64,000 nucleotides of DNA from positions 192,001-256,000 of IMG/VR virus record IMGVR_UViG_3300007171_000004. One strand, 5' to 3'. Both the position numbers and the translations under genes were made by a program. This stretch comes from a virus (taxonomy: Duplodnaviria; Caudoviricetes). A model generated the notes under the pieces. That model was given only the letters and a program-made list of their open reading frames with translations, did no database searches and was not told where the DNA came from. Shown here piece by piece: positions 9,472 through 61,448 of the stretch. The stretch's first letter is position 1; each line of letters starts with the position of its first letter.

Positions 9472-9915
9472 CTATCTTAATGGACCGTATTTAATTCCTG
9501 GGTTATTTGCTTTTTCTTTTTCTATATTCTCGTCTAAAAAATCATCTAATTCTCTTAAACCTGGATTAGACATTGTAAATCCATCTTCGTAAATTAAAGC
9601 TGGACCGGGTACATCAGCTTCTCCATGTAACTGCTCTTCAATACCCTTAATTCCTTCATCTCCATCAGGCAAATCGTTGTATGTAGGAATTTTGTCTCTA
9701 TAATGTTTGTTTCTTAAAAAATCTGCATGACTGAAATCGTATGCAACATCTTTCCATTTTGTCATATGCCCAGAAAGATCATATGTAGTGTCGCTAATTG
9801 ATGGAATAATTTGAGCGATTTTAATATTAATAAGATCTGCAGAGTTAAATAGGCCGAGCTTGTCATAATAGTCGGCTTTTTTAATTAGTTTTAAAATCTT
9901 TTCAGTTGCTTTCAT
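9472..9915 (-). CDS. Hypothetical protein with N-terminal LxxxAxxxDxxGxFxxAD helix motif
   Basis: 147-aa ORF starting MKATEKILKLIKKADYYDKLGLFNSADLINIKIAQ. Confidence 0.7.
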   Translation of the reverse strand: MKATEKILKLIKKADYYDKLGLFNSADLINIKIAQIIPSISDTTYDLSGHMTKWKDVAYDFSHADFLRNKHYRDKIPTYNDLPDGDEGIKGIEEQLHGEADVPGPALIYEDGFTMSNPGLRELDDFLDENIEKEKANNPGIKYGPLR

Positions 9916-9939
9916 ATCTTAATCTATTGGCTACAAACT

Positions 9940-11034
9940 TTAAATTATTCCTTTGATATGATTTTCAAATGTTTTCAAAGAGCTTATGATTGTTTGATCC
10001 ATATTCATATAAGCATAATTAGCAAGTCTTCCACCAAAAATATATTTATCTTTATCAATCATCTTTAAATATTTTCTAAAGATTTCATTATTTTCAGAAG
10101 AATTAATTGGATAATATGGATCATTTAATTTGTTATATTCTTCAGGGAATTCATATGTAATAATAGATTCTTTAATTGGTCTATAATTGAAATATTTATG
10201 TTCTATGATTCTAGTCCAAGGTATGCTTTTGCTTGGAAAATTAACTTGTGCAATTCCCTGATAATCTTCGTGAACTAAATGATGGGAAAATTTAAGAGAT
10301 CTATATTCCAAATCTCCATGAATGTAACCAAAAAATCTATCAATAGGACCTGTATAGACAACATATTTTGCCATCTTATCAAAATCATCTCTAGAGGCAA
10401 AGTAATCTGTATTTAACTCTAGTGGAATATCACCTAAGATTTTTTTAAATAAATCTTCATATCCATCTTTAGGAACACCAGAATAAAGCTTTTCATGGTA
10501 ATCATCGTTGAAATTAAATCTTATCGGCAATCTATTGAATACAGAAGAATCTATTGTCTTAGCATCTCTTCCCCATTGCTTTTCTGTATAGCCTTTAATT
10601 AATAACTCGTAAATATGCTGTCCAACAGAATCTATAGCAAGTTCTTCAAAATTTATGGGGTTTTTAAATTTATAGAAAGATTGGAATAAATCTTTAACTT
10701 CGGAAATAGATGAAAGTTCTGGATAGATTTGATATATTGTTTGAAGATTTATAGGAAATGAATAATATTGTCCATTTGTAAACGATTTAACTTTGTGCCT
10801 GTAATGATTGAATTCTGAAAAGTTATTTACATATTCCCAGATTTTTTCGTTATTAGTGTTGAAAATATGAGGCCCGTATTCATGAACATTGATACCATTA
10901 TAATTTTTACTGTAACAATTTCCACCAATATGATTTCTTTTATCAATTACTAAGACTTTTTTGCCCAGATTATGAGCTTCTCTTGCAAATACTGACCCAA
11001 AAAATCCAGAACCAACAACTAAATAATCATACAT
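9940..11034 (-). CDS. glf: UDP-galactopyranose mutase
   Basis: FAD-binding VVGSGFFG, IDKRNHIGGNCY, HEYGPHIF, TRIIEHKYF, PYYP and GGRLANYAYMNMDQ motifs; 364 aa. Confidence 0.95.
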   Translation of the reverse strand: MYDYLVVGSGFFGSVFAREAHNLGKKVLVIDKRNHIGGNCYSKNYNGINVHEYGPHIFNTNNEKIWEYVNNFSEFNHYRHKVKSFTNGQYYSFPINLQTIYQIYPELSSISEVKDLFQSFYKFKNPINFEELAIDSVGQHIYELLIKGYTEKQWGRDAKTIDSSVFNRLPIRFNFNDDYHEKLYSGVPKDGYEDLFKKILGDIPLELNTDYFASRDDFDKMAKYVVYTGPIDRFFGYIHGDLEYRSLKFSHHLVHEDYQGIAQVNFPSKSIPWTRIIEHKYFNYRPIKESIITYEFPEEYNKLNDPYYPINSSENNEIFRKYLKMIDKDKYIFGGRLANYAYMNMDQTIISSLKTFENHIKGII

Positions 11035-11050
11035 AATAATCTTTTACAAT

Positions 11051-12025
11051 TTACCAACCAGGAGTGAATAATGGATCTGTAACTAAATTATGAACTGGAG
11101 TGATTTTTTCATCATCGTCATCATTATCTTTTAAAAAACTATCCCAAGACGAAAATGGTTCCTTGTGTAAATTACTCTCATAAGATTCTTCAAGATTTAA
11201 TTCTTTTTTTTGAAGTTGAGATTTATCTTTTTCAATATGATTTTTATAAGGAGCATCACCACCAGGAACATCAAAAGGCAAAGCTGGTGTGTTCCAAAAT
11301 TCACTATAACCACTTCTATTTTGCTTAGGTAAAACTTCCAAATACTCATCTAAAGTTAAATCTGCAGGGCCTAATAGCGGAACAGGATTAGGAAAGTGAG
11401 TTTTTCTATATGTTTCAAATTCGGATTGTTCTTCAGAATCGTCAACAGTTACTCTATCTCTTCTTTTAATTGGATAGGCAGCGACAATCTTATCTAAATC
11501 TCTAATAGCCCAATGAATTCTCTCAGGCTTAATTAAATCTGGAATATTATCAATTAAGTTAGATTTAAATCCATCTTCGTATTTTCTCTTAGAACTCAAT
11601 AACTCTTCAATTCCAACAACATGCTCATTTTTTGGTTTGTAATGCTCTTTGATAAATTTGACAGAGTTATTTCTTAATCTATTTCCAGCATCTTGAAGAA
11701 ATTTTTCGTGCTTTTCAATTTCTTCTTTAACCTTTTTCTTATATCTTTCTCTAGGAGTTAATTCAAAAGGGATAGTGTCATCTTCGGAGAATCTATGGAA
11801 AATTTCAAGGCGAACTTCAATGTTTCTCTCTTCAGAAGGGTCAACAGGATTATGGGTTCTTGCTAAAAAATGCTCAAATGAAATATCCTCAATAAAAGCA
11901 TTAATATCCCAACCTCCAGGATTATAACCACCTTTGCCTATAGGACTTCCACCTGGCGAATAAGGAGACGCTGTTCCACCACCACCAATACCGCCAAACT
12001 GAGCAATTTTAATAGATTTTTCCAT
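11051..12025 (-). CDS. Hypothetical protein with Gly/Pro-rich N-terminus after KIAQ
   Basis: 324-aa ORF starting MEKSIKIAQFGGIGGGGTASPYSPGG. Confidence 0.7.
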   Translation of the reverse strand: MEKSIKIAQFGGIGGGGTASPYSPGGSPIGKGGYNPGGWDINAFIEDISFEHFLARTHNPVDPSEERNIEVRLEIFHRFSEDDTIPFELTPRERYKKKVKEEIEKHEKFLQDAGNRLRNNSVKFIKEHYKPKNEHVVGIEELLSSKRKYEDGFKSNLIDNIPDLIKPERIHWAIRDLDKIVAAYPIKRRDRVTVDDSEEQSEFETYRKTHFPNPVPLLGPADLTLDEYLEVLPKQNRSGYSEFWNTPALPFDVPGGDAPYKNHIEKDKSQLQKKELNLEESYESNLHKEPFSSWDSFLKDNDDDDEKITPVHNLVTDPLFTPGW

Positions 12026-12028
12026 ATA

Positions 12029-13642
12029 TTAAGTCCTTGAAGTTGGATAAGAACCAGAGTCTAATGTAAATGTTTTGATAACAGTTGTATTATCACTTGC
12101 ATATAAAGATAATGTTGTTCCTGATATAACCCACTTGCCAAAACCATAAGCTCTAGCAGCATTCAACGCATCACCTACAGTATGGGCAGTGTTAGATGTA
12201 GGAACAGATTGGGACATGTCAATTTGTGTGTAAGCTAAATTAACAGTAAGAACAGCTCCATTAGTACCCGCTGCTCCTCTTACGTTAATTGTTACATCAG
12301 AAGAGCCTGAAGCAAAAGCAGCATTCGGCACGTCTAATCTATAAATTCCAGGCATTGTTGTTGAATTAATTTCTGCAAAACCACCTGAAGTCCAAGCTCC
12401 TGTTGCTGTCTGACTTACTAACGAAATCTGAACTGGAGTACTTCTATTTCTTACATAGTAGGCTTGCAGTCCTGATGTATTGAATGTTAGACCTTTCACA
12501 CCTAGGTACAGTTCGATGGATTGTGAGGTGCTACCGGGGGAGATTGTGATAGAAGATGAATTACGCTCCGTTGGAAGATAGGAGCCTATACCAGATAAAT
12601 TTCTATAAGTAGAAAAACCAATATCTGGATTTGCGCTTGTCCATGTGACACCATAAATGTCAGATCCAGGGGCATTAGTCATAGTACCTGTATTTATATT
12701 TGGACTAACTTGTTCTGGAGAAAAGATCATAATTGGATTAAATCCTAAAACTGTTTCATATCCATGAGAAATTCCATAAACGCCTACAGATTTTGAATTA
12801 GCTCCAATGGTTACATTAGAATATGCAGTTTGACATCCTATTACACGATTATAATCATCATCAATGTATGCTGTACCAGTACCAGAAATCCCAACACCAT
12901 TAACGTTTGCCACAAGAGTATTACGTATTTTTAACGGAAAAGATGCATCACCAATTGTTGCAGCTAAAGGACAGCGATAAAAAGTACAATTTATAACTAG
13001 GCCTTGAATATTACGGATTAGAGAAACGGTATTTCCAATGACCAAGCAGTCAGACATTTCAAATGTATCTGTAACATTTACTCCGTTAATCCAAGGAGTA
13101 TACGTATGACCAACAAAAACACATTTGCGTATCTTCAAATTACTGGCAGTAGCTGCGGTCGTAGTCCAATAAAAACTGGAACCGTTGACACCTGCGTAAT
13201 TTACATTTTGTTGGAAAATACATCTGGTCCAGGTAAAATTATTGCAAGTTAAACAATTGATAATATTATTATTGCCTCCACCGCCTCCCTGAAAATATAA
13301 TGAATCAAAACTCAAAAATGCTTTTGATGTTGCGTTTAATAAATTATTTGTATTTGCTGGAGAAGAATCCTCATTTGAATAATTTGAAATTTTTACAAAT
13401 CCTGGAGATATGCCAGTAAATTGATTACATAAAATGTCACCAATTATTGAAGTAGTACTAGAATATGTACCACCAATTGTAATATTTTCAGTATAAACGC
13501 CGGGAGCTATATATAAAGTGTCTCCTGAATTTATTCCAGTAGCACCTAAGGCTTTTTGTATTGTTCGCCAAGCTAAAGAAACACTTTGCCCTAAACCAGT
13601 GTTGCCATCATTTCCATCAGGTCGCACATAATAAGTTGCCAT
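12029..13642 (-). CDS. Right-handed beta-helix (pectin-lyase-like) protein, putative tail spike/fibre or head decoration
   Basis: N-terminal TYYVRPDGNDGNTG...AWRTIQKAL...GDTLYIAPGVYTE (DUF1565-like), Asn/Cys ladder repeats, Thr/Ser/Gly-rich C-terminus. Confidence 0.75.
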   Translation of the reverse strand: MATYYVRPDGNDGNTGLGQSVSLAWRTIQKALGATGINSGDTLYIAPGVYTENITIGGTYSSTTSIIGDILCNQFTGISPGFVKISNYSNEDSSPANTNNLLNATSKAFLSFDSLYFQGGGGGNNNIINCLTCNNFTWTRCIFQQNVNYAGVNGSSFYWTTTAATASNLKIRKCVFVGHTYTPWINGVNVTDTFEMSDCLVIGNTVSLIRNIQGLVINCTFYRCPLAATIGDASFPLKIRNTLVANVNGVGISGTGTAYIDDDYNRVIGCQTAYSNVTIGANSKSVGVYGISHGYETVLGFNPIMIFSPEQVSPNINTGTMTNAPGSDIYGVTWTSANPDIGFSTYRNLSGIGSYLPTERNSSSITISPGSTSQSIELYLGVKGLTFNTSGLQAYYVRNRSTPVQISLVSQTATGAWTSGGFAEINSTTMPGIYRLDVPNAAFASGSSDVTINVRGAAGTNGAVLTVNLAYTQIDMSQSVPTSNTAHTVGDALNAARAYGFGKWVISGTTLSLYASDNTTVIKTFTLDSGSYPTSRT

Positions 13643-13676
13643 TATTTAATTATCCACAAAATAATTTTCATATCTA

Positions 13677-16600
13677 TCAAATTCTTCTACCTAATGAAAT
13701 TGTCCTAGAACCTGGTAGTCTTTGCATGATTTTACTTGTTAAACATTCATAAGATACAGCAGCTATGGCATCACAAATATCATCTTTATATCCTTGCAAC
13801 GCTGAAATATAATATCTAGAACCTTTCCATTTTTTTTGTAGGAATTGAAATTGTATTTTTGCTTCCTGAATTTCATTAAGATCAAATTCTCTTCCAGTGG
13901 CATCTTTAAACTTACCTCCTGAAAGATCATAAATATCAATCCTATCCTCTCTCAATAATTGGGTAAGTTCTGTGTAAATCTTTTCCTTATATTCCTTATT
14001 AAATTGACGTTCTAATGCATTAATACCAGCACTTTGTAATTTAATAAGAGATGATTGAGAATGCCATTGATCAAAAGTCACTTGTTTAAACTTGAACCTT
14101 TTGTGTAATTCAATTATATATTCTTCAACTTCTCTCTCAGACACAGGTTGGTTTTTAATCATAGGATTCCAAAAATGAATATGATCAATTACAACTCTTC
14201 TTAGAGGTCTATTATCAGGTCCAATTGAGCCATAAATAGGTTCAGAGTGCGCTACAGCAAGAGCATAATAATCAGATGTTCGAGCTGGATCTAAATGACA
14301 ATAATAATCAACTAAAGGCTGACCCTGCTCTCTTCGTCCCACCATTGAAGAAGAATTGAAAAATCTATCAATAGCATCAGGGGTGAACATTGGATCTGAT
14401 GAAGAAGCTCCGAATTCCGCCCCATATTGCATTTGATGTTCTACAGGGTTTTTCTTTTTCTGATCATCTAGCCAAGCTTTATCAATATTAGGATTTGTTA
14501 ACCAAGTAGGTAATCTCATCACTAGAGTTGTTGGATCATCTTGCCTGTTCTCATGTAAATCATATAACAATCCAATAGGGCCTTTAGGGTTAGAAAGCAT
14601 CATCATCTTTCCATCCTTACCAAAAGTAGCTAGAGAAGGTTTCAAGTCATCATAAAGAGAGTAGTCAACACCAGAATCAGGATTGTCTCCGGCCATAGCA
14701 GCTACCTCGTCCATAATAATACACCAACAAGTAAGACCAACAAGACCTGAAGCATTACTAGAACCACAACGCAAAACAAGAGATCCAGGAAATAAATTAA
14801 TACCAGCTACTTCTCTTCTTTCATTTTCTTTTCGGTCATGGTCTGTATAGAATCTCATTTCAAGTTCAGTATCTTTTCCAATAAAGGGTTGAAAATATGG
14901 AGATGCTAAAACAGTCTGCTTAATTTTAGAGAAGATAGCTTTTTTAGCCTGTTCTTCGTTCCTAGCAACATTAAGTAGAACAATCTCGTCAAATTCCATC
15001 AAACCATATCTAGATTGAGGATGATCCATAGAAATTAAACGATATAATTCATAAAGAGCCATGGCAGAAACAAGGAACGAATTATGAGTTGGAATCATAC
15101 TCTTTCCAATTAAATACATATGGGATGGATGTTCTACCTGAATACATTGCATGCCCGGATTAGGAACAGGATTGCATTCTTTAATAAAAACTCTATATTT
15201 ATCAGATTTATCGATTGTTGGTTTATTATCTAATATTGCTTGCTTTCTTGGTAAATTAAATACTTTATCACCAGGGCGAACAGAGTAAGTAATTCTCCAA
15301 CGATCTGAGGTTTTTCTTCCATAAAGTGTTGCATCAGATTTCTTAATACTTGCCTTAAAACCTAACCCACAAACAAGTTCATAATAATCATAAGCTAGAG
15401 TTTCATTAGTGTTGCAAAATTCTACAGTATATTTTTTAGGATCTACATAACCATCAGTATCATTCAAACCTCTTAAAAGCTCTAATCTTTGTTCAATAGA
15501 TGCTTGCTTGTAGATTAATGGAATATGCTTGTTTTTAAATACGCCAATTTCTTTAATCAAATGTAAGAATATTTTATGTGTTTCTGTGTTAGGATGAATA
15601 TAATGTGATTTTTCAATTGTAGAACAGTGTTTAATTGTATGATTGCAATTAGCTTCAATATAATCAAAAATTTCCATATCAATTCCAGTTAATTGATAAG
15701 AAGATTTACAGCCATCTCCTAGCCATGCTCCAAGAAGATAGGGATGAATTAAAAGATCTTGCTCTGAAAATTGAAGGGGTTTTGTAATCTCTATAGCATG
15801 ATTGTACTCTACAGTAAATTTCTCTCTTCTTTCAGTTTGTGAGCCTTTTTTGAGCATCTGTCTAGGCTTACCATATGTTAAAGATTCATAGATTTGTTGA
15901 GTTGTAAATACTTGAGGAACAGGGTCTTTAGAATATTTACCTCTAGATGCGTTTTTTCTTTGAGCTTTCGTGAGAGTCACCCATTCATGATTTTCACCAG
16001 CGACAATTCTATCTCCATTGCTAAATACTAATTCATACGCTTGCTCATCATAATCTATATCAGATTTTGCAATGACTTTAGTAGCTGTTCCATCTGGTGC
16101 AAAAACATAATCTCCTACCTTGACTTCACCCATTGTTGACCACCCAGATGTCGTATATAATGGGGTGTCTAACAGTAACAATTTTCCCGAACGGCGACCA
16201 AGCACTAAAACTAGTTCTTGAAATTTGTATCTTTTAGTACATTTGTTAAGAACCTGCAATCTGAGTTTAGGATCGAACTCTTCAGAATATAGCAGATCTT
16301 TTTCGCTTTGGAAGTTATCTGTAATAGGTCTTGCTTCGAGTTCAAGTACCTGTCTTTCTGAGTCTGGGTTTGTGGCTTCTTCTTTTGCAGCTTTATATCT
16401 TGTTTCTCTAGCGGATTCTGAAAAATTTGAACATGTTAAGCAGGGTGAATTTACTACAGAGAAAATCGTTTTAAGATTCCTGCCTTCGTTATAAAAAGTT
16501 TCAAATTTAAGCTCATTGTCTTTAATATATTCCCAGACACAACCTTTACAGCCATTTCTATCCTCTGGTAAAATATCATCAATTTGCAGAGTAGTGTTGC

Positions 16601-16892
16601 CTTCTTGTCCCATATAGAAGCATTTGAGAATTAATCTTTGCCATGGGTAGGGTTTTAAGTTACAGTAATAAGGATGTTCAATAAATGTTACAATATCTAC
16701 AATTTGATCGGGGTTAAATCGGTCTTTGGGTGGAATCGCTGGTGGTAGTGATTCTGATCTAGTTGCTGGCAATACTTCATCTAAAAAATCGTATCCTTGA
16801 TCTTTAAGAAAGTTTGTAGCGTTAGCAGCATTTTGCAAGAGTTGAGTTTTGAAATCTTGCTGGTTATTTTTATCCTTAACTGTTTTTCGCAT
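13677..16892 (-). CDS. terL: Terminase large subunit with intein
   Basis: Walker A GRRSGK|S is interrupted by an intein. Walker B CIIMDE, MMMLSNP coupling motif, nuclease HLDPA...DDICDA. Confidence 0.93.
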   Translation of the reverse strand: MRKTVKDKNNQQDFKTQLLQNAANATNFLKDQGYDFLDEVLPATRSESLPPAIPPKDRFNPDQIVDIVTFIEHPYYCNLKPYPWQRLILKCFYMGQEGNTTLQIDDILPEDRNGCKGCVWEYIKDNELKFETFYNEGRNLKTIFSVVNSPCLTCSNFSESARETRYKAAKEEATNPDSERQVLELEARPITDNFQSEKDLLYSEEFDPKLRLQVLNKCTKRYKFQELVLVLGRRSGKLLLLDTPLYTTSGWSTMGEVKVGDYVFAPDGTATKVIAKSDIDYDEQAYELVFSNGDRIVAGENHEWVTLTKAQRKNASRGKYSKDPVPQVFTTQQIYESLTYGKPRQMLKKGSQTERREKFTVEYNHAIEITKPLQFSEQDLLIHPYLLGAWLGDGCKSSYQLTGIDMEIFDYIEANCNHTIKHCSTIEKSHYIHPNTETHKIFLHLIKEIGVFKNKHIPLIYKQASIEQRLELLRGLNDTDGYVDPKKYTVEFCNTNETLAYDYYELVCGLGFKASIKKSDATLYGRKTSDRWRITYSVRPGDKVFNLPRKQAILDNKPTIDKSDKYRVFIKECNPVPNPGMQCIQVEHPSHMYLIGKSMIPTHNSFLVSAMALYELYRLISMDHPQSRYGLMEFDEIVLLNVARNEEQAKKAIFSKIKQTVLASPYFQPFIGKDTELEMRFYTDHDRKENERREVAGINLFPGSLVLRCGSSNASGLVGLTCWCIIMDEVAAMAGDNPDSGVDYSLYDDLKPSLATFGKDGKMMMLSNPKGPIGLLYDLHENRQDDPTTLVMRLPTWLTNPNIDKAWLDDQKKKNPVEHQMQYGAEFGASSSDPMFTPDAIDRFFNSSSMVGRREQGQPLVDYYCHLDPARTSDYYALAVAHSEPIYGSIGPDNRPLRRVVIDHIHFWNPMIKNQPVSEREVEEYIIELHKRFKFKQVTFDQWHSQSSLIKLQSAGINALERQFNKEYKEKIYTELTQLLREDRIDIYDLSGGKFKDATGREFDLNEIQEAKIQFQFLQKKWKGSRYYISALQGYKDDICDAIAAVSYECLTSKIMQRLPGSRTISLGRRI
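13681..13706 (-). promoter_or_regulatory. SigH-type promoter candidate AGGA-N18-GAAT
   Basis: Minus strand AGGAcaatttcattaggtagaaGAAT at the 3' end of terL, ending 39 nt before ATG 13642. Confidence 0.5.
15081..16181 (-). mobile_element. Class 3 intein with LAGLIDADG homing endonuclease (367 aa) in the terminase P-loop
   Basis: Block A LLLLDTPLYTTSGWSTMGEVKVGD; block B AGENHEW; LAGLIDADG motifs YLLGAWLGDG and LLRGLNDTDG; block F MQCIQV; block G IPTHN followed by Ser. Confidence 0.92.
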
Positions 16893-17593
16893 TAGTGTTC
16901 CTGTTGTAGTCTATCTCGGAGTGTTTTAATTTCCATACTAACAATTCTCTTATCATCTGAACATACAAGTTTTTCATGTAAGTTGATAAGAATTTCAAAA
17001 ATATTAAGGGCTAAAACTCCTGCATTATCACGTTTTTCTTTAAGGTCCATGATTCTAGCAATTAATTTCTCAACCATGGCAGATCTTTTAAGTTTCAGCT
17101 CATTATTCTTACCGCAATCGATCCCTCTTACTTCATCTAGTTCTGTCATAAGGGCTACAAGGGCTAATTGGTGTTCACGAAAGATCCAAGGAGCTATCAT
17201 TTCTTCTCTTTGTTCATATCCTTTAAGTCCAGATACAGAGACTTTTCGGAAATCGCAGTGAGAATCCATGTGAGTTTTTACTTGAGTCCAGTTTAATCTT
17301 GCAGCATAATATTTATCAAAAAACTTAATTACAGCTTGAGGTTTCTTTCCGCTTTCAAGATAAACATGTTCGGCAAGAGTTCTAAATGGGCTTGAACATA
17401 TAGCACATCGAGTTTCAGTATATTGAGGATAGTGAACATCTAAATAGGAATCTTGAGGTAATTGCTGAAGAGGTTGATCATCAAACTTAAGATCTGCGAA
17501 GAGTTTTATTTTTGGTTTTACTTCAATTAGGGAATCTGTTTCAGTAAGTTCTTCAATTATAGTAAAGTCGTTATTGTCAAATTTATCGTCCAT
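16892..17593 (-). CDS. Putative terminase small subunit (Zn-finger/HTH plus helical C-terminus)
   Basis: Immediately upstream of and coupled to terL. CAIC...HMDSHC metal-binding pattern. Likely start MDDKF at 17593 (the track uses TTG at 17608). Confidence 0.5.
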   Translation of the reverse strand: MDDKFDNNDFTIIEELTETDSLIEVKPKIKLFADLKFDDQPLQQLPQDSYLDVHYPQYTETRCAICSSPFRTLAEHVYLESGKKPQAVIKFFDKYYAARLNWTQVKTHMDSHCDFRKVSVSGLKGYEQREEMIAPWIFREHQLALVALMTELDEVRGIDCGKNNELKLKRSAMVEKLIARIMDLKEKRDNAGVLALNIFEILINLHEKLVCSDDKRIVSMEIKTLRDRLQQEH

Positions 17594-17612
17594 ATTTAGA
17601 TTGTACAAAAAA

Positions 17613-17636
17613 AAGAACCTCGGTTAAGAGGTTCTT
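17613..17636 (-). terminator. Intrinsic terminator
   Basis: aagaacctc-N6-gaggttctt stem followed by T8 on the minus strand. Confidence 0.75.
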
Positions 17637-17662: not shown

Positions 17663-18370
17663 TTAGATGTTAAGAGCTTTTTTAAGTCTTTCGTATGGAC
17701 TTGTGGCATCTGCAGCATAAACAAGAAATTCATCTGCAAGGCCAAAACTCTCATAATTTCCTTGGGTATATTTTTCGCTATTAGATTTACCAAGATTAAG
17801 ATCAACTTCTGCTTCATGGTTTTTGATAGCTACTCTGAAGGTATTATTTCCAGTAGAAGCAATTTTAGCGGTGGAATTTTGTGCAGTAAGAACGTTGCCT
17901 AATAAACACTCTTCGAACCATGGCTTTAATTCGCTATGAAGTGTTTGGAGTGCATTACTGTCTTTTTGTGCATATTCGGCTAATTTTACCAATGAATCAA
18001 AAGCCTTATTAGAAACTTTAACGATTGCATGGTCGCCTTGGCATAATCTCTTGGCGAATTCCTTAGCAGAAACATTCTTGAGGGTATTTTCTACAGCTGG
18101 TTTACAATCATCATACTTTGTTGGAACTACTGGGATAAATGTTGCTTTTTGGGCTTCCTTAACATTTTCTTGGAAGATAGAAGAAGCATACTTCTCTACC
18201 ATATCAAGATCGAAATTTTCACTAGCTAAAATTTCAATAGCGTCTGATCTGTTGTAGCCTTGTTGCTTTAGATCTGACGCTAATCGTTGAATTAACATGC
18301 CTTGACCAGAACTATGAGACTTAAGCTCATTCCTCCAGTTATAAATAAAGTCATTTTTTGTTTCGTACAC
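17663..18370 (-). CDS. Hypothetical protein, probable virion-associated
   Basis: 235 aa, GTG start with SD AGGAG; contains RLASD, KEAQ and KIAS. Confidence 0.7.
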   Translation of the reverse strand: MYETKNDFIYNWRNELKSHSSGQGMLIQRLASDLKQQGYNRSDAIEILASENFDLDMVEKYASSIFQENVKEAQKATFIPVVPTKYDDCKPAVENTLKNVSAKEFAKRLCQGDHAIVKVSNKAFDSLVKLAEYAQKDSNALQTLHSELKPWFEECLLGNVLTAQNSTAKIASTGNNTFRVAIKNHEAEVDLNLGKSNSEKYTQGNYESFGLADEFLVYAADATSPYERLKKALNI

Positions 18371-18505: not shown

Positions 18506-19057
18506 TTATACTATTTCTTCTTCTAGTAATTTCTTAAGTGATTCTAATGCTCGTTCTAATCTTCTTGAAAACGATGCTTGGGTAATTTTCAATAATTCTG
18601 CAGCTTCTTCTTGAGTATATTCTTCAAAGAAATATAACTTAATTGCCTCTCTTTGTTTTTCTTTCAATTTAAGCAATGCATCTTTTATTACAATTTTATC
18701 CAATATTCTATTAAATGGATCACTGGCTTTTAGTTCTTGAATTTCTTGTTCATCAATTTCTTCAAGATGCGTGAATTTGCATTTGATGAGATTAACAATT
18801 GCTCTATCTATTCTTGTTGCTAAGTAATATGAAAAGAAAGATAATTCTGGATCATAAAGTTCTACAAGCTTCTTAAAGATAAAATAAGATTCTTGAATTA
18901 CATCCTCTACATATCTTATAGAATTATATTTAACTGTGCATCTTCTAATTGATGTTCTAATTAAGGGAGTATAGAATTCGTAAAGTTTATTTAAAGAATA
19001 TTGATCATTATTTTTAGCTTTTTCTACCAGCTTATTTATTTCTTCATAATTGTCCAT
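18506..19057 (-). CDS. Sigma-70 family RNA polymerase sigma factor (short, ECF-like)
   Basis: Region 2 EDVIQESYFIF...YDP...FSYY; region 4 LKEKQREAIKLYFFEEYTQEEAAELLKITQASFSRR. Confidence 0.9.
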   Translation of the reverse strand: MDNYEEINKLVEKAKNNDQYSLNKLYEFYTPLIRTSIRRCTVKYNSIRYVEDVIQESYFIFKKLVELYDPELSFFSYYLATRIDRAIVNLIKCKFTHLEEIDEQEIQELKASDPFNRILDKIVIKDALLKLKEKQREAIKLYFFEEYTQEEAAELLKITQASFSRRLERALESLKKLLEEEIV

Positions 19058-52251: not shown

Positions 52252-52252
52252 A

Positions 52253-53179: not shown

Positions 53180-55501
53180 ATGAAATTCAATCTTTCGAAA
53201 TTAAAAACAGCAGCAAAGCCAACCGCACAAGATTTAGAGAATCAGCTTAGAGCAGAATTAGCACCTTTAGCAGAAATGTATCAACAAGGCAAGATTTCTC
53301 AAAAGGATATTTATAGACTCCTTGGTACTACAATCAAGAACTACCAAAATGAAATTATTGCTGAGGAACTTGAAAGATTTAGAAAGCCAGTTCAAGATTT
53401 AACAAGGCAAATTTCAAAACTTAAACCTGATTATGATCCTTCTGATATTTTATCTGAAGTTATGTCTAGCATTAATGTTGCAGTTATTCCTGAATTAAGA
53501 AGACTTTATATTTTAGCAAAGAAGAGAACAGAAGAATTATTTAAAGAAATTTCAATTACTACTGAACCAGAAAAACAAACCTGGGGCACATTTGTAGCAG
53601 ACGAAAAAACAAGAATTTTAGATGACACTAAAGCATCTTTTGAAGAGTTTGTAGATAAGATTTCTAGTATGTTCGGAAATATTTCTGAAGATGAAGCCAA
53701 AGTCTTAATTAGAAATATTCCTCAGCCAGCTAATATTGAAAAAAATCCTGAGTTGCTTGCAAATAGATTCAGTGGAATTGACTCTTATTTTTCAACAAAT
53801 ATTGTAGAGAAAAATCCACTTCCTCAATCCATGTCCAAATATGTAGAAGCCTCAAAAGCTGTGTTTTCATTTTTGACAGGTATCAGAAATAAGGCAAAAG
53901 AAACTTGGACCCAATATATGTCTGGAAGAGATCCAATGGCATTGGAACATTTGCCTAAGGTTGATATGCAAATTGATACAGACCCTTGGAATTTGTTAGA
54001 TCAAGCTGGTTATCAACTATCTGCTTTAATTGGCCCTATATCATATTGGAAAGTTGAAAATAAATCTGGCAATATTGAAAGCGATAGTAGTATAGATAGA
54101 TCATTCAATTCTGATGATGAAATTATTCGAAGAGTTCAAGAAACAGTAGCACAAGGTTATGATGACGATAGATTATTGTATATTTTAACAGATCCAAAAG
54201 AATTACAAGGCAACCCAATTTTAAATGATCCTAATTACAAAAGATTAAGAGCCTTGTTTACTGAAATTTTAAGAAGTAATCGATCTAGATTTAAAGACAT
54301 CTTGGTAAAAGCTGGTTTTCATGATCTTCCTGAAATTGTAGAAAGAGTAGATAAACTTCAAAAAGATCCTGTCTATGCAGATTTTAATCTTTATGTAAGG
54401 TCAAGACCAGAATCAAAACTATATAAAGTTTTAAGAGACGAATTTGACTTAAATCCATTGCCTTTTGAATCTAATATGAGAATGCCATCAGAATTTCCAT
54501 GGGGCAGTACAATTAAAACAGACTTTCTTTTACCAGCAGATGTCATTCAATATTCTGGTAGTGAATTGACAATTAAAAGACAAATTGTTTTCACTGGTGA
54601 ATATCTCGAAGGCCGAACAAAGTCTCAAGATCCTAAACAATTATATGGAGAAAAGCAATTCTTAGGTCCAGACGGTAAGCCTCATAAATTCAATATTAAT
54701 GTTGGTGGAATTTCAATCTCTAAAGAGATGAAGACTGGTGTTTCAGTAAAAGAACAAGATATTTATAATGCTACTGCTGATTGGAAAAAAGTCGCTCAAC
54801 CTGTTGTAGCATCTATGATTGGTTCAGCATCTCTCTACTTTACTGATGAAGATGCTAGACCTCCATATACTTCAGCTGCTAAAAAATTAGATCAACATTT
54901 TATTATTTACGATTTTGCTGGATGTAATGATGATACATGTGTAGCCATGAATTTACTCAAAAAAGTTGCTTCTGAAAATCCTAATAGTGAAGCTGCAAGA
55001 TATCTCGCTACACCAAGAGAATTTGATCAGAAGAAAAAACAACTTGATTATTTAGATGTTGTAAAGGCTAATTTTTTGATGTCTAAAGTATTTTCTGCTG
55101 CCATTGAGCGTTCATCTTCAAATAGTTTCACAGCAGAGTCCATGTATGCTCATTATGAATATTTGAAACAATTAAATCTTGACGAGCAAGATATTTTAAG
55201 AGAATATAGAAATACTCCAGATCAAAATGAAAAATTAAAACAAATTGCAGAATTAAAATTGTCTTTAAACAATTCACCTATGCAAGAATTTAAAGATAAT
55301 TTCGAAGAAGCTAAAAATCAAAAAAGATTTGCAAGAATTTTAGCTGGTTTTGATTACTTAAAAGAATTAGTAAGAAGCACAGATATATCCGATGTTGATC
55401 TTAGAGTTAAAACTAACGATTTACAAAGAGGCTTAAATATCATGGAGCTTAAAACCTCAGCTGAAAGAATTAAGTTAATTAGAAAATATGCCTCTTCTTA
55501 G
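53180..55501 (+). CDS. Large hypothetical protein, probable virion internal protein
   Basis: 773 aa; starts MKFNLSKLKTAAK and ends RKYASS. Confidence 0.75.
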   Translation: MKFNLSKLKTAAKPTAQDLENQLRAELAPLAEMYQQGKISQKDIYRLLGTTIKNYQNEIIAEELERFRKPVQDLTRQISKLKPDYDPSDILSEVMSSINVAVIPELRRLYILAKKRTEELFKEISITTEPEKQTWGTFVADEKTRILDDTKASFEEFVDKISSMFGNISEDEAKVLIRNIPQPANIEKNPELLANRFSGIDSYFSTNIVEKNPLPQSMSKYVEASKAVFSFLTGIRNKAKETWTQYMSGRDPMALEHLPKVDMQIDTDPWNLLDQAGYQLSALIGPISYWKVENKSGNIESDSSIDRSFNSDDEIIRRVQETVAQGYDDDRLLYILTDPKELQGNPILNDPNYKRLRALFTEILRSNRSRFKDILVKAGFHDLPEIVERVDKLQKDPVYADFNLYVRSRPESKLYKVLRDEFDLNPLPFESNMRMPSEFPWGSTIKTDFLLPADVIQYSGSELTIKRQIVFTGEYLEGRTKSQDPKQLYGEKQFLGPDGKPHKFNINVGGISISKEMKTGVSVKEQDIYNATADWKKVAQPVVASMIGSASLYFTDEDARPPYTSAAKKLDQHFIIYDFAGCNDDTCVAMNLLKKVASENPNSEAARYLATPREFDQKKKQLDYLDVVKANFLMSKVFSAAIERSSSNSFTAESMYAHYEYLKQLNLDEQDILREYRNTPDQNEKLKQIAELKLSLNNSPMQEFKDNFEEAKNQKRFARILAGFDYLKELVRSTDISDVDLRVKTNDLQRGLNIMELKTSAERIKLIRKYASS

Positions 55502-56354
55502 TCCTGAATATATTTCTAAATGGTACTATTTAGAAGATTTAAACAATACAAATAATATTGTTTTAGTTCAGACCTGTAATCAAAATTTAGTAACTTCAGC
55601 AGAATCTAATCAATTAATGACTGGCCATGCTGGATCAATGTCTATAACTCCATCTCAATTTGACTGGAGTACATCTTTAAACAGCCCTATATTAGTAATT
55701 AATAATATAGTTCCAAGTGATTCAAGAATTCATAAAGATTTATTCACATTTGTTAAAGAAAAATATGATTATCTTTGTAATCATTTAAATTATGGCGGAG
55801 AACAATATCCATTAGACTCAAGTTATCTAATGAAAAAGTTCACAATAAAAATTGAAAATGATGTAGAAATAGATGCTGATTTAATTGGCAATATAGGAAG
55901 TTATTTTAAAAATACATTAGCCGTTGATAATGAAAATTATCAATTATCATCAAAAGACTTTATTGCTAGAACTATCAAATTCTATGACATTAATTTTTAT
56001 GTTAATGGAACTCAATTAAAATTGTTGACTGCAGATATTACTGCAAATTTTGATTATTCGAAAAATTATTTTATAAATTCAATGACTAGCATGCCATTTT
56101 ATGGTGTTAATTTTTTAAGAATCAATGGAAGAATAGAGTTCTTAATACCAGTAAGTGAATGGACAAGCTTTTCTGTCATAGAGCAGGAATACAACGCTTT
56201 ATTTACAGAACAAGCAAATGTATCGATACAAATACAAAATGAATATTTAAATCTAGGTCAAATTAATTTAAAAAATAGCCTTACGTTTAATTTAAATGGT
56301 TCATTAACTACAGTCTCCTTGACATTTGAAACGTATGCAAGATATCGAGAATAG
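55488..56354 (+). CDS. Beta-rich structural protein, possibly tail-tube-like (paralogue of the next gene)
   Basis: MPLLSPEYISKWY...; shares several blocks with 56363-57373. Confidence 0.6.
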   Translation: MPLLSPEYISKWYYLEDLNNTNNIVLVQTCNQNLVTSAESNQLMTGHAGSMSITPSQFDWSTSLNSPILVINNIVPSDSRIHKDLFTFVKEKYDYLCNHLNYGGEQYPLDSSYLMKKFTIKIENDVEIDADLIGNIGSYFKNTLAVDNENYQLSSKDFIARTIKFYDINFYVNGTQLKLLTADITANFDYSKNYFINSMTSMPFYGVNFLRINGRIEFLIPVSEWTSFSVIEQEYNALFTEQANVSIQIQNEYLNLGQINLKNSLTFNLNGSLTTVSLTFETYARYRE

Positions 56355-56362
56355 GATCTTTT

Positions 56363-57373
56363 ATGCCACTTCTAGCCCCACAGCTTATTTCTACATGGTA
56401 TTTGTTTCAGCAAAATCTCAATAATCAAAGCCTTATTCGTATTGTTGAAGATTGGACAGAACAACAAACCCAAGATTTAAATGAAAAGAAATTAATACAG
56501 GGTTCAAACGGAACTCATGTAATGGATGTTGGTGGTATTATTTGGGAAAATACAGTTAGAGCACCAGTTTTAATTATTAATCAAGCTACTGGTTATTCTA
56601 GTAGATATACAGACATTTTTGATCTATTATCTTATTCTTTCAATGCAACAAGATCCCCGTTTTTAGATCCTACATTAACTTTTTTAATGAAAAGTGCTGA
56701 TATAACAGTTGATCAATCTGGTGGTAGATGTGATATATCTTATTTATCTCCTATTCCAATGTCAAGAACACTAAATGCAGAAACTTATAAGACTATTGAT
56801 GGAAATGGAAATTATATAAATGTTTCTCCTCCATTTTTAAGAGTTTATGCACCTGAAAATTATAATGTATTGCCAGACTTTATTGGAAGAGTTGCTAGAT
56901 TCTATGATTTTTATGTTTCGTTTTTTGATACTGCAACACAATCATATACATCTTTCCCAGTATTGAATGCAAAGATTAATTTTACTTGTAATATTCAAAA
57001 GAATTATTTTATTGGTTTTTACTCTCAAACTCCATTTTTGTCTGTTCAAGATTATTCTATTTCTGGAACTATGACAATTATGGCAGCTCCAGCAAGTTTT
57101 AGATCTTTTGAAATTGATCCGCAAGTTGGGTATAACTCTGAAGAAAATTCATTTACGGGACCTGGTGTTCTTACTCCTATCAATGTTCAAATGGCAATAG
57201 GAGTAGCTGGTACTGCTTCAGATAGTTCAACAATTAGATCCCCTCAAAGAGAAATTTATTTAGGTTCAGCATCAATGAGATCTAATGTAACAAGAAATAT
57301 GTCTCCTAACGAGATTACAAAGATTACTATAGACTTCAAGACATATACAAGACCATCTACTTCTGTATCTTAA
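56363..57373 (+). CDS. Beta-rich structural protein, possibly tail-tube-like (paralogue of the previous gene)
   Basis: MPLLAPQLISTWY...; FIGRVARFYDF aligns with FIARTIKFYDI. Confidence 0.6.
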   Translation: MPLLAPQLISTWYLFQQNLNNQSLIRIVEDWTEQQTQDLNEKKLIQGSNGTHVMDVGGIIWENTVRAPVLIINQATGYSSRYTDIFDLLSYSFNATRSPFLDPTLTFLMKSADITVDQSGGRCDISYLSPIPMSRTLNAETYKTIDGNGNYINVSPPFLRVYAPENYNVLPDFIGRVARFYDFYVSFFDTATQSYTSFPVLNAKINFTCNIQKNYFIGFYSQTPFLSVQDYSISGTMTIMAAPASFRSFEIDPQVGYNSEENSFTGPGVLTPINVQMAIGVAGTASDSSTIRSPQREIYLGSASMRSNVTRNMSPNEITKITIDFKTYTRPSTSVS

Positions 57374-57390
57374 ACTGTACAAAATAATTA

Positions 57391-57876
57391 ATGTGTACTT
57401 ATGAGAGTCTTGAAAATTATCAAGAAATTTTAACCTTTACTATTCCAGGTCGTCCAGCTACTAAAAAAACTTCTCAAAGAGTTGTAAGAATTGGAAGGAT
57501 GACTAAAGTTCTTCCTTCTGTGACTTATGAAAAATACGAGAAGAATTGTAGAGAGCATTGCGAAAACATCTGGAAAAATGCTGGAAATGATCCAATTGAT
57601 TGTGGTATTGGAATTTATTATAAGGTTTATCTAGATTCTTATATCATTGGAGACTCTACAGGATATTTTCAAGCTATTGGTGATATTCTAGAAAAATTTG
57701 GAGTGATTGCTAACGATATGTGGATTCATTGGCTTTCTGATGATACACATGCAATTGCCATAGATAAAGCTAATCCAAGATGTGAAATCAAAATTGTAAG
57801 ATATAAACATCCTTATGAAGCATATAGGATGGAAAAGATTGCTAAAGAAAATAAGAAAAATAAAACCCCAGTTTAA
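57391..57876 (+). CDS. RusA-like Holliday junction resolvase
   Basis: FTIPGRPATKK, D....QAIGDILEKFGVIAND, IDKANPRCEIKI; catalytic motif diverged. Confidence 0.7.
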   Translation: MCTYESLENYQEILTFTIPGRPATKKTSQRVVRIGRMTKVLPSVTYEKYEKNCREHCENIWKNAGNDPIDCGIGIYYKVYLDSYIIGDSTGYFQAIGDILEKFGVIANDMWIHWLSDDTHAIAIDKANPRCEIKIVRYKHPYEAYRMEKIAKENKKNKTPV

Positions 57877-57891
57877 CCTGGGGTTTTATTT
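57858..57891. terminator. Bidirectional terminator between convergent genes
   Basis: aaataaaaccccag-N6-ctggggttttattt, a 14-bp stem. Confidence 0.8.
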
Positions 57892-58225
57892 ACTCTGCAG
57901 CTGGTTCTTCAACAACTGGAGGAGGAGCTACAGGACGAACATAGTGTGGTTCGGTATCTGTAATACTAAACTCACCTTCAACACCAAGAGGCTCAATTAC
58001 TGTCTTAAATGATTCTTGAAGATCATCTTGTGCCTTCATGATATCGTTGTCGAGAGTTGCCTTTCGCTCCTTGGCTTGCTCATACTGCTTCAAATTCTCT
58101 TCAAAACTCATGAGCCAATCAAGAATGTCCGACTTCTGTGCCTTAAGCTCCAATACAACTTGACGCTTTGCAACGAGCATCAAATAATCATCATGCGAAA
58201 TCTGTGGATCTGTATTTTCTTCCAT
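57890..58225 (-). CDS. Hypothetical coiled-coil protein
   Basis: 111-aa ORF. Confidence 0.65.
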   Translation of the reverse strand: MEENTDPQISHDDYLMLVAKRQVVLELKAQKSDILDWLMSFEENLKQYEQAKERKATLDNDIMKAQDDLQESFKTVIEPLGVEGEFSITDTEPHYVRPVAPPPVVEEPAAE

Positions 58226-58252
58226 AATTTTCCTACCCTTATTAACTAGGTA

Positions 58253-58286
58253 CTTGTATTATACCCAAAATCAGATAGAATAAGAC
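58253..58286 (+). promoter_or_regulatory. Sigma70-type promoter, probably leaderless
   Basis: cTTGTATtatacccaaaatcagaTAGAATaagacATG; 29 of 37 positions identical to the purA promoter. Confidence 0.65.
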
Positions 58287-58958
58287 ATGATTATTTACAT
58301 TAGTCCATCTGATTTTGCATTTCTTTATAAGCAATCAAAATGGGGATTTCATCAAAAGTGTATGAAGAATATTCGTAGACCTTTTCTTCCAATGCCAGGT
58401 ATTTTTAATGTTATTGATGCTGGAATGAAAGAATATCTCAAGAGTACTAAAAAACCTAATATTAAAAATACAGATATCTTTAATGATTTTGAATTTAAAT
58501 TTGAAGACGCTGCTGTTTGTTCACGTCCTATTGTAAATTCAGATTTTCCAGATGTTCAAGTATGTCTTCGTGGAAAGCTAGATGGTATTTACACTAATGG
58601 ATCTCAAAACTATTTAATCGACTTAAAGACAAGTTTTACAGACCCTGATTCTCTTAAAAAATACAATTTACAACTTAATTCATATGCTTTTGCTCTTCAA
58701 AATCCTTATGATGAATTTTGTGTAACCATGGACATTTATAAAGCTGGATTAATTGTGTATGAACCAGAGTCTTTTAATGAATTGGGCTTGATGGGCGGAA
58801 TGGCATGGCATGAGACAAAACTGAATTTAAATGCTTTTGAAAAATATATTCAAGATACAATTATTCCATTTTTAGCTGGACCAGAACCTAATGCAGAAGA
58901 ATCAGATCCTTTTTATGATTATTTATATAAATTAGGCTTTAGAAACTCAGAAAGCTAA
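58287..58958 (+). CDS. PD-(D/E)XK nuclease (RecB/Cas4-like fold, no Fe-S cysteines)
   Basis: LRGKLDG...LIDLKTS...QLNSYA motifs. Confidence 0.85.
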   Translation: MIIYISPSDFAFLYKQSKWGFHQKCMKNIRRPFLPMPGIFNVIDAGMKEYLKSTKKPNIKNTDIFNDFEFKFEDAAVCSRPIVNSDFPDVQVCLRGKLDGIYTNGSQNYLIDLKTSFTDPDSLKKYNLQLNSYAFALQNPYDEFCVTMDIYKAGLIVYEPESFNELGLMGGMAWHETKLNLNAFEKYIQDTIIPFLAGPEPNAEESDPFYDYLYKLGFRNSES

Positions 58959-58959
58959 A

Positions 58960-59003
58960 AGGAATTTATGTTGACACTCCTGTAAAATAACTTCAGGAGT
59001 GTC
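58960..59003 (+). promoter_or_regulatory. AGGA-N18-GTAA promoter candidate overlapping a 10-bp hairpin that covers the downstream SD
   Basis: gacactcctg-N11-caggagtgtc (58973-59003); its 3' arm contains AGGAG 11 nt before ATG 59011. Confidence 0.5.
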
Positions 59004-59010
59004 TTTTATT

Positions 59011-59979
59011 ATGCCAAAGTTTGTGGATGATTTTGTTTCCGAAAGATTAAAAGATAAATCGTTCTATCCTGAGCTAAGTGAAAAAGAACGCAAGTCTATT
59101 GCATTCGCAATAGCATATAAAACATTAAATGAAAAAAAGCAAAAGAAAAATAAAAAGAAAAGCTTTTTTATTGGTGTTAATACAAGATACTCCGAACTCT
59201 TAAGATTATGTCGTCATTTAGATCATAAAGGTCAATATCGTACTGCTGATAAAATTGTAGAGGCTTTAAACCGTGGAGAATTCTGGATTGAGGATGATGG
59301 CTCCACTATATATGCAGATGGTGATGTTGGTGATTTGAATCATGCAATGGTAGCTGAACAAGAAATGATATCTAGGTTGGGTATTTATTTCGAAGATGAA
59401 ATCTACTCTATCGAAAATGCTAGAGAATTGTTTTATCAATCTATTAATGACGAAGGTGCTTATGGCCCTGATGGTATAGAAGATTATATTCAAGATCTTA
59501 AATCTGATTATGGAGATGATTGGGTTGATGAAGCTTCATTTGATCATTTTATTGTGTGGAATTCTACAAAACAAGCCCATAATCATCCTGCAATGTTAAT
59601 AGAGAGCCAAAAAACTTTAGAAGGATTTAAAGATCCTGTAACTTTTGCAATTGAAAACTATGGATGGATTAGAGCTGAGATTAATAGAAATTATGCAGCA
59701 TTTCAAACTAAAAATTTGAACAAGATGAATTTTGATAAAATCTTAGCATGTCTTCTTGGAGATTATCCTGAAGAGTCTAATATACAGCCAGATTATAAAA
59801 TTTCATTAGAAGTACAATCTCCAGTGGTTACATCTTTAAAATTTAATTATGATGAATTTAATTGGGATCATGTATGGGAAGAATTTAAAAGCTCTATTGG
59901 ATTAAAAGAGCCTGTTTCTGAACCTAATTTAGCTACTCCAAATATGCCTGAGTATTATCAAGGAAGAGAAGGCGATTAA
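59011..59979 (+). CDS. Hypothetical acidic protein with LxxLCxxLDxxGxYxxAD motif
   Basis: Likely start MPKFV at 59011 (the track uses GTG at 58999). Confidence 0.7.
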   Translation: MPKFVDDFVSERLKDKSFYPELSEKERKSIAFAIAYKTLNEKKQKKNKKKSFFIGVNTRYSELLRLCRHLDHKGQYRTADKIVEALNRGEFWIEDDGSTIYADGDVGDLNHAMVAEQEMISRLGIYFEDEIYSIENARELFYQSINDEGAYGPDGIEDYIQDLKSDYGDDWVDEASFDHFIVWNSTKQAHNHPAMLIESQKTLEGFKDPVTFAIENYGWIRAEINRNYAAFQTKNLNKMNFDKILACLLGDYPEESNIQPDYKISLEVQSPVVTSLKFNYDEFNWDHVWEEFKSSIGLKEPVSEPNLATPNMPEYYQGREGD

Positions 59980-61448
59980 TGACTAATTCCTTAGAACTAT
60001 TAAAACTTGCGGATTCATTAGATCGTCAAGGCTTTTATAGATTAGCACAAGAAGCCGAAGAATCAGCACAAGAACAAGCAACATCTCAACAAGAATTACA
60101 ACAAAATAATATTAATTTTTATGAAATGACTGGAAATACAGCTGAGTTATACAGTGCATATAATTATTTAAGACAACTTATTGGGCTTGGTCTTAATTCT
60201 AGATATTTTCAACAACTTATAACAACTTATAAATTAAATAATATTGATCAGATGATTGGTGTTTTTGCTAGATTAGGGAATACAAAAGCTGCTGATCTCT
60301 TAAAATCAATAAGTAATAATAAATTTTTAGCAGCTAGACAAAACAAATTATTTACTTATTTGAAAACATTTGAACCAGGAGCGCTTTTTACAGCTGATGA
60401 ATTGAAAATTCTTCAGAATGCTACAAAATATAATGCTCCTGCAATTGGGTCTGGTTTAAATACTATTGAAAGATTTAAAAATCTTTCTGGTATTTCACAA
60501 GAAGTTATTAACGCAAATCCAACTAAATTCAGAGATGTTTTAAGATTTATTGGAAATGGCCAAATCGAAGAAGCAGCAAATATTTTAAAAAGCATCGAAG
60601 GTTTAAATTCAAGTCAAGTGGATGCAATCTTATTTAATTCAAAAGCTATTCAAAGTGAAATAAAAGCTGCTGAAAATGTTTTAAAATTTGATCAAGTAGC
60701 CCTTCAAAAGGGTAATTCTGTATTCACAGCTTTAAGAGCTATGGCAGCAGAAATTCCCGTCATTGGTAAAGTAATTCAAGTTCTAGAATGGGGTATGTCA
60801 AAAGGACTTCCTATTCTTGGTATTATTGCTGGAGCTGTAGAAGTGGTTGCATATTCAAACCAACTTAAAAGTGCTCCAGAAGAAGAAAAAGCAGATATTA
60901 GAATGGACATTGCACAGGGAGTAATTAATATAATTGGTAATATTTTAATGCTTGTCCCAAATCCAATAGCACAATCAGCAGGTGGCATAATTCTTGGTTT
61001 AAATTTAGCTGCAGATGTAGTACAAGGTAAATCAAAAGATTGGATGGCACAAGCTGAAGGTTTCGATAATGCAGAGCAGATGAAACAAACAAAGCAAATT
61101 GCCGAACAAGATCTTTCTGTTGTTTCAAGCAATCCTGAAGTAACAAAAGCAATGGATTATCTAATCAAAAAAAATTGGGTGTATTTTGAATCCCCAGCTA
61201 GATATAAAAATGAAATTTCTCAAAAGTTAATGCCAAACAATGCTCTTGCAGATGTTGGTGGACTTTATGGTAGTGATAGAAATGCAAACTTTTGGAAGTG
61301 GTCTGGAAATACAAATTCTCCTGAATATTTAGAATTTGTTCAATCTCTGACTCAGTTGAAAAAGAAACTCTTTGATAGTTTTAGGCAACCTAGACAAATG
61401 ACTCAAAGAACTTCATGTAGAGCTAAAATTAAGCTAAAATATGCTTAA
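59979..61448 (+). CDS. Helical protein with hydrophobic hairpins, probable virion internal/ejected protein
   Basis: N-terminal LLKLADSLDRQGFYRLAQ; hydrophobic segments LPILGIIAGAVEVV and IAQGVINIIGNILMLVP...AGGIILGLNLAADVV. Confidence 0.7.
   Translation: MTNSLELLKLADSLDRQGFYRLAQEAEESAQEQATSQQELQQNNINFYEMTGNTAELYSAYNYLRQLIGLGLNSRYFQQLITTYKLNNIDQMIGVFARLGNTKAADLLKSISNNKFLAARQNKLFTYLKTFEPGALFTADELKILQNATKYNAPAIGSGLNTIERFKNLSGISQEVINANPTKFRDVLRFIGNGQIEEAANILKSIEGLNSSQVDAILFNSKAIQSEIKAAENVLKFDQVALQKGNSVFTALRAMAAEIPVIGKVIQVLEWGMSKGLPILGIIAGAVEVVAYSNQLKSAPEEEKADIRMDIAQGVINIIGNILMLVPNPIAQSAGGIILGLNLAADVVQGKSKDWMAQAEGFDNAEQMKQTKQIAEQDLSVVSSNPEVTKAMDYLIKKNWVYFESPARYKNEISQKLMPNNALADVGGLYGSDRNANFWKWSGNTNSPEYLEFVQSLTQLKKKLFDSFRQPRQMTQRTSCRAKIKLKYA

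Follow-up and report, generated by a model that had tools for sequence, protein, structure and literature searches.

A short helical hairpin of about 37 residues, here called the tag, recurs in otherwise unrelated proteins of an uncultured huge phage, and three copies of it are encoded in a 64,000-nucleotide stretch of DNA that we refer to as the window (bases 192001-256000 of one 300,536-bp IMG/VR virus record, IMGVR_UViG_3300007171_000004; 32.8% GC; CheckV completeness 84%). The tag is restricted to phage proteins, portable and under selection. Its sequence indicates that it behaves like one tetratricopeptide (TPR) repeat and probably derives from one. By analogy with other phages, the tagged proteins may be loaded into the assembling capsid and then cleaved by the prohead protease, a reading to which we give somewhat less than an even chance. 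The three copies, their genes and a fourth candidate that was rejected are located as follows.

9472-9915, minus strand: gene of a tagged 147-residue protein in the head-assembly operon, between terminase and portal
9802-9909, minus strand: tag copy 1 (residues 3-38), with helix, Gly turn and helix; ends in KIAQ at 9811-9822
58999-59979, plus strand: gene of a 326-residue mosaic protein with a small N-terminal domain, a K-rich linker, the tag and a payload
59179-59295, plus strand: tag copy 2 (residues 61-99), internal, without the terminal K-x-A motif
59979-61448, plus strand: gene of a tagged 489-residue protein with hydrophobic segments in its C-terminal half
59979-60086, plus strand: tag copy 3 (residues 1-36), of a shorter form in which [KR]LAQ (60039-60050) comes immediately after the turn
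18236-18298, minus strand: putative fourth copy, in the open reading frame (ORF) starting at 17663; rejected, no hidden Markov model (HMM) match

The first-pass annotation of the window had described a helix pattern shared by three unrelated proteins. The pattern lies exactly where it had been placed, namely in residues 10-27 of the 147-residue ORF (9835-9888), residues 67-84 of the 58999 ORF (59197-59250) and residues 7-24 of the 59979 ORF (59997-60050). A strict regular expression for it gave five ORF matches in the 300.5-kb genome, against zero in 200 residue-shuffled proteomes. The carriers are indeed otherwise unrelated, since an all-against-all BLASTP of 13 carriers with the tag masked gave a best E value no better than 0.02. 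The two endings that had been pointed out, KIAQ at residues 32-35 of the 147-residue protein and RLAQ at residues 21-24 of the 489-residue protein, are both present. The N-terminal location claimed for all three copies holds for these two proteins and fails for the 58999 ORF, where the copy comes after a domain of about 55 residues. The weaker fourth copy proposed in the 17663 ORF does not belong to the family: every HMM that we built left it unmatched, and the orthologues of this ORF retain the helix-Gly pattern, not the tag signature.

The three carriers differ in their histories. Syntenic orthologues of the 147-residue protein in three related phages (G001, G002 and G005) have 30-38% identity to it and retain the tag and its K-x-[AS]-Q ending; the position of the gene between terminase and portal is common to four phages. 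AlphaFold2 (AF2) predicted helices at residues 3-20 and 23-40 of this protein with a pLDDT of 72-80, and the tag was the sole confident part. The 326-residue protein probably starts at the ATG at 59011. Its residues 4-57 match free-standing genes of 63-89 residues in G001, G002 and G005, and its residues 90-280 match a 316-residue protein of G003 that carries a degenerate tag; among five relatives, the payload was found in G003 only. The 489-residue protein has 34 homologues, none of them in G001-G005. In 28 homologues of 52-94% identity, the N-terminus of copy 3 (about 24 residues, up to [KR]LAQ) is near-invariant, with the first 20 residues 90% conserved, and is followed by an indel-rich Q/E linker.

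An HMM seeded from the matches to the regular expression found extra copies that had escaped the expression; each of them lies at residues ~10-30 of its protein. Extended to the rest of the genome and to related huge phages, as the first-pass annotation had suggested, the HMM search gave 13 clear and one or two partial copies here and 8-23 copies in each of five related IMG/VR huge-phage contigs (114-358 kb), mostly in islands of adjoining tagged genes. The capsid proteins of G001-G003 are 96% identical to that of the phage studied here, and G005 has a syntenic head module in common with it. The huge phages in which the tag occurs form an uncultured clade with head genes akin to those of Bacillus phage G. 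When the HMM was built from the 10 copies outside the window, the 9472 ORF (E value 2e-4) and the 58999 ORF (E value 3e-3) were the top two non-seed matches, and the copy in the 59979 ORF was weak (E value 7). Of the 13 copies in the genome, 11 lie within residues 1-45, as does a copy in about 89 of the ~95 phage-type database matches. The exceptions in this genome are the internal copy of the 58999 ORF and a 221-residue protein (genome 75432-76097, plus strand) that carries the tag at its extreme C-terminus; the latter would also have a short MKFNKLAQ leader if its start were Met24, and would then combine both types of leader. In a 474-residue protein (genome 23029-24453, plus strand), the second half of the tag alone occupies residues 19-43 and ends in KIAG; the protein has an endolysin-like domain (phrog_315, E value 3e-11).

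We then searched 1.84 billion representative proteins with a 45-position profile of the 13 copies. The search of the window's own genome, run as a control, recovered the copies. The profile matched 1124 representatives (protein clusters) at E values of 1e-3 or below and 79 at 1e-10 or below. Among the best 150 matches, 74 have a single copy at residues ~2-42 followed by unrelated sequence, and 30 are long cellular TPR-array proteins. The remaining 46 include ~17 phage-type proteins with two or three copies or with one copy that is not N-terminal; the others have a few weak TPR-like stretches. In these ~17 proteins, the N-terminal copy is accompanied by a second copy that is internal or C-terminal, the copies form an adjacent tandem, or there is a single internal copy, which may be a start-codon miscall.

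All of the tag clusters that were sampled are annotated as hypothetical proteins, and searches of Pfam and PHROGs with the three carriers and 10 other tagged proteins left the tag unmatched. Matches for payload domains were few (FHA, AP2 and zinc-ribbon, with weak LPD1 and DUF5754). Payloads turn over rapidly: the 489-residue protein is absent from the five relatives, and the first ~55 residues of the 326-residue protein are encoded elsewhere by a small gene of their own. Phage G, Tunturi_5 and LR745208.1 had no match to the tag profile, and tblastn of the 147-residue protein and of the canonical tag found no match in 50,697 GenBank phage records. A pattern scan of one genome per prokaryote species (~185,000) did not find the tag either, and no paper was found that contains the tag string. 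The tag constitutes a new, uncurated protein family of more than 1000 clusters.

The canonical tag starts at Met1 and has the consensus MNKRQIIASLNKIANELDNSGLYKEANxITKVMxK[IL]AQ. It consists of helix A (residues ~3-19), a turn centred on L-D-x-x-G and helix B (residues ~23-40), and its invariant positions are L10, A14, L17, D18, G21 and M33. Across 80 database representatives, the information content is 2-5 bits per position up to residue 37 and falls below 0.8 bits from residue 39; beyond this boundary an acidic or low-complexity linker leads into unrelated sequence. AF2 on an alignment of 51 tag sequences predicted helices at residues 3-19 and 23-42 in an antiparallel helix-turn-helix, with a mean pLDDT of 91. 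A Foldseek search of the hairpin against the PDB returned generic helical hairpins only, at E values above 2. At the aligned position of the tag end, 8 of the 13 copies have [KR]-x-[AS]-x and 3 more have x-x-A-Q. Among paralogous tags of one gene island, 0.47-0.75 of synonymous sites have changed versus 0.21-0.31 of non-synonymous sites, and the same Leu, Ser and Ala positions use differing codons. Because synonymous change exceeds non-synonymous change, selection acts on the peptide and not on a DNA or RNA element.

The tag resembles a TPR repeat, a feature that the first-pass annotation missed. In hhalign, the tag alignment matched 11 cellular TPR_10/12 repeats with a probability of 96.5% and an E value of 8.7e-10 over 28 columns (tag columns 4-31). 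An HMM made from cellular TPR repeats alone gave the tagged proteins as its top matches in the proteome of this phage and found no multi-TPR protein there. The long database proteins that match the profile in several stretches are TPR_10/TPR_12 proteins. In its sequence signature the tag resembles these families (PF13374, PF13424) from helix A through the turn into the beginning of helix B, and it shares the predicted antiparallel hairpin with them. The tag differs in that it is found in phage proteins only, is usually single instead of part of an array, and has a helix B with the ending V-M-x-[KR]-[IL]-A-Q, seven residues that lie beyond the TPR match. It does not form a solenoid of three or more repeats: there is usually one copy per protein, and a few proteins have two or three, adjacent or ~200 residues apart. 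The Pfam TPR models did not report six tag sequences even at E values up to 10, nor the whole tagged proteins, and the tag is outside the curated TPR family. A single TPR-like repeat would be a generic protein-docking hairpin, and its target therefore need not be the capsid.

The ending of the tag connects it with the head-assembly module, which is carried on the minus strand of the window. The parts of this module that bear on the motif are listed below.

13677-16892, minus strand: large terminase gene, start of the head module
11999-12025, minus strand: MEKSIKIAQ leader of a 324-residue Gly-rich head-module ORF; leader and motif kept in four orthologues
4276-4296, minus strand: MWYRIAQ leader of a 125-residue ORF adjoining the portal gene, a second leader type with the same motif ending
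1488-3893, minus strand: portal gene
1-1407, minus strand: N-terminal part of the prohead protease (1396 residues; whole gene at genome 189217-193407; phrog_18299, head maturation protease, E value 7e-17)

The motif [KR][ILVT]A[QS] occurs 49 times in the proteome, 20 of them in the head module, which comprises 8309 residues. Shuffling within proteins gave an expectation of 2.0 for the head module (maximum 6 in 500), and the reversed motif occurred 5 times. The density of the motif in the head module is 7.3-fold that of other proteins (P = 1e-9), and the sites are kept in orthologues of 45-68% overall identity. The sites likely lie at domain borders: they flank the protease domain, run along its extension, mark the border between the portal core and an HNH-like domain, and stand at the N-terminus of the Gly-rich 324-residue protein. 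The protease domain comprises residues ~54-246 and is fused to an extension of ~1100 residues that contains six conserved K-x-A-[QS] sites; the 300-residue gp19 of phage G has no such extension. The two K-x-A-[QS] sites of the protease that fall within the window (1309-1320 and 502-513) are kept in four orthologues. In the portal protein, the C-terminal residues 677-795 form the HNH-like domain (phrog_503, phrog_559), which two conserved R-L-A-S sites (2163-2174 and 2091-2102) separate from the portal core. Leaders of the MWY[KR]xAQ type stand at the head of the ORF adjoining the portal gene and of two genes within a tagged island; these short leaders and the MEKSIKIAQ type are found clustered with tagged genes. 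The sharp C-terminal boundary of the tag coincides with a motif that is characteristic of the head proteins of this lineage.

The capsid protein, the protease domain and the portal protein are 50%, 39% (gp19) and 30% identical, respectively, to their counterparts in Bacillus phage G, which makes the virus an uncultured distant relative of phage G. The rest of the head module gave no further matches to phage G, and the protease domain had no match among PDB sequences or in Pfam. The major capsid protein has 284 residues, lacks a delta domain and is encoded just beyond the window. The head module of phage G is likewise enriched in the motif (7 versus 1.5), and two of its sites come directly after the gp19 protease domain; the phage G literature that was examined states no cleavage sites.

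The first-pass annotation had proposed that the helix is a modular signal for loading cargo into the head. From the sequence and from the known systems described below, it is conceivable, at a little under even probability, that tagged proteins are loaded into the capsid and then cleaved by the prohead protease. The hairpin would act as an address label: by binding some component of the prohead during assembly it would bring its payload along, and accessory proteins would be enclosed in this way. The most promising docking sites would be elements of the head module that are peculiar to the clade, for example the ~1100-residue extension of the prohead protease, which may serve as scaffold or tag receptor. 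The prohead protease would cut between the A and the following residue of the [KR]-x-A-[QS] ending, a code that would also mark further proteins of the head module, the protease and the portal among them. Cleavage would free the payload within the head for delivery alongside the DNA. An unlikely variant of this scheme is that the solo TPR hairpins of different cargoes stack side by side, or complete a partial array on a head component, so that a bundle of cargo is enclosed and then freed at the [KR]-x-A-Q endings by a cut after the A. Capsid loading would then work by repeat complementation and be programmable.

Huge phages package many proteins, and we know of no shared, transferable loading signal outside T4. 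The capsid targeting sequence (CTS) of T4 is about 10 residues long and ends in L/I-x-E. The scaffolding protein of P22, with its coat-binding C-terminal helix-turn-helix, and the cargo-loading peptides of encapsulins show that small terminal docks inside an HK97-fold shell can carry foreign cargo. These elements are C-terminal and, in contrast to what is proposed for the tag, are not removed by a protease. Assigning the motif to a protease and the hairpin to a dock on the prohead follows the precedents of the T4 CTS and of the SPN3US and phiKZ propeptides. In the account of T4 given in PMC10052503, which cites Mullaney and Black 1996 on this point, the CTS of the internal proteins IPI-III and Alt is removed by the gp21 prohead protease. 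The T4 propeptides direct proteins to the prohead core (PMC10052503). The tag is like the T4 CTS in being a portable N-terminal leader on unrelated proteins that is followed by a motif also marking head proteins, and this suggests a load-then-cleave logic. It differs in being a folded hairpin of ~37 residues that ends in [KR]-x-A-Q; the two have no evident similarity in sequence or length, and the likeness is by analogy only. In SPN3US and phiKZ, both giant phages, the prohead protease cuts at A-X-E and so removes propeptides 20-254 residues long from the N-termini of head and ejection proteins (PMC10052503). Shared features of these two phages that recall the present case are the jumbo size, the many processed head proteins, several motif copies per substrate and self-processing of the protease. 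Their propeptides are specific to each protein instead of forming one shared module, and both the motif and the phage lineage are different.

If capsid loading is correct, the tag on hundreds of unannotated proteins would mark the cargo or effector set of an uncultured phage clade and point to its anti-host arsenal, and it would provide a simple handle for putting foreign proteins into HK97-fold shells.

Several observations weigh against capsid loading. A portable module on unrelated proteins, mostly N-terminal and usually ending in [KR]-x-[AS]-Q, was confirmed; only 1 of the 13 tagged genes is in the head module, and the other 12 are not part of any recognised virion module. Some of the copies occur in tandem, inside proteins or at C-termini. 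The residue after the Ala is mostly Q, E or D in the tags but S in the head proteins, and two of the three copies in the window have no canonical K-x-A ending where the alignment places it. A membrane-active character is suggested for at least two payloads, by hydrophobic segments in the 489-residue protein and by a glycine zipper in another case. No cultured phage was found to carry the tag in the searches of phage G, Tunturi_5, LR745208.1 and the GenBank phages. The promoters gave no timing: a CAGGA-N18-GAAY-like box precedes only one tagged gene, a sigma-70 scan near the tagged island scored at chance, and scans for the plain SigH pattern and for TGTACA were uninformative on expression timing.

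A solo TPR hairpin could instead be a docking or oligomerisation module that is unconnected to the capsid, which we consider a serious possibility, at about one third of the weight. Its partner might be a host protein (including TPR-array proteins such as STAND NTPases, which the hairpin resembles), a replication or takeover hub of the phage, or other tags through repeat stacking, and K-x-A-Q would then be a mere end of helix B. TPR repeats serve generally in protein binding, and the tag matches the TPR_10/12 type; arrays of two or three tags at a spacing of about 40 residues, like the internal and C-terminal copies, fit such a module. The FHA, AP2 and zinc-ribbon payloads suggest host-takeover functions, and the accessory islands that hold most tagged genes differ between phages whose capsid proteins are 96% identical. 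However, docking away from the capsid leaves unexplained why the tag-specific, non-TPR ending matches a conserved motif that is about 10-fold enriched in head proteins, and why one tagged gene has been conserved within the head operon; in addition, the phage encodes no multi-TPR partner. Even with a target other than the capsid, the tag would be a clear example of how one TPR repeat has become a portable address module.

It is improbable that a chaperone or protease system, such as the phage Hsp70 (62471-64000, minus strand), uses the tag as a handle for recognition or folding and thereby controls the stability or folding of the tagged proteins and not their location. The TPR domains of co-chaperones bind Hsp70 tails, and the phage Hsp70 gene is 1 kb from two tagged genes. 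This idea draws on proximity alone; the C-terminus of the phage Hsp70 has no EEVD-type motif, and one repeat does not make a TPR clamp. Conservation at the DNA or RNA level, as a recombination cassette or as a translation-initiation region at the 5' ends of genes, would agree with the clustering of tagged genes in cassette-like islands. It is very improbable, because the paralogous tags differ at 47-75% of synonymous sites while the residues persist and because copies are also found inside proteins and at C-terminal ends; the synonymous-site analysis rejects the DNA-level explanation. Chance likeness of amphipathic helices is the least credible explanation of all. The motif is short and the copy in the 59979 ORF did poorly in the leave-out test, but none of the 200 shuffles had any strict match against the five observed, 1124 database proteins match at E values of 1e-3 or below, and the position is consistently N-terminal. 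For the tag family as a whole, chance likeness is refuted.

Other genes in and around the head module were also noted. The large terminase has 1071 residues here versus 703-708 in four related phages (71-82% identity), and this difference in length suggests an insertion of about 360 residues, perhaps of the intein or homing-endonuclease type. A 537-residue ORF adjoining the terminase gene (12029-13642, minus strand) has an orthologue in none of the four related head modules and is probably a mobile insertion. A 364-residue gene in the head operon (9940-11034, minus strand) encodes an N-terminal dinucleotide-binding motif, and its sole strong match is phrog_9677 (function unknown; E value 4e-112). 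Of the related phages, G001 and G003 have the gene and G002 and G005 lack it; its product may resemble UDP-galactopyranose mutase.

A SigH-like box, CAGGA-N18-GAA[CT], precedes three head operons by 37-55 nt (1447-1473 and 8531-8557 in the window, minus strand; 189119-189145 in the genome, minus strand), and the window contains a phage sigma factor gene at 18506-19057 (minus strand). The Hsp70/DnaK homologue at the other end of the window (PF00012, E value 8e-143) extends past the window end and has an acidic C-terminus.

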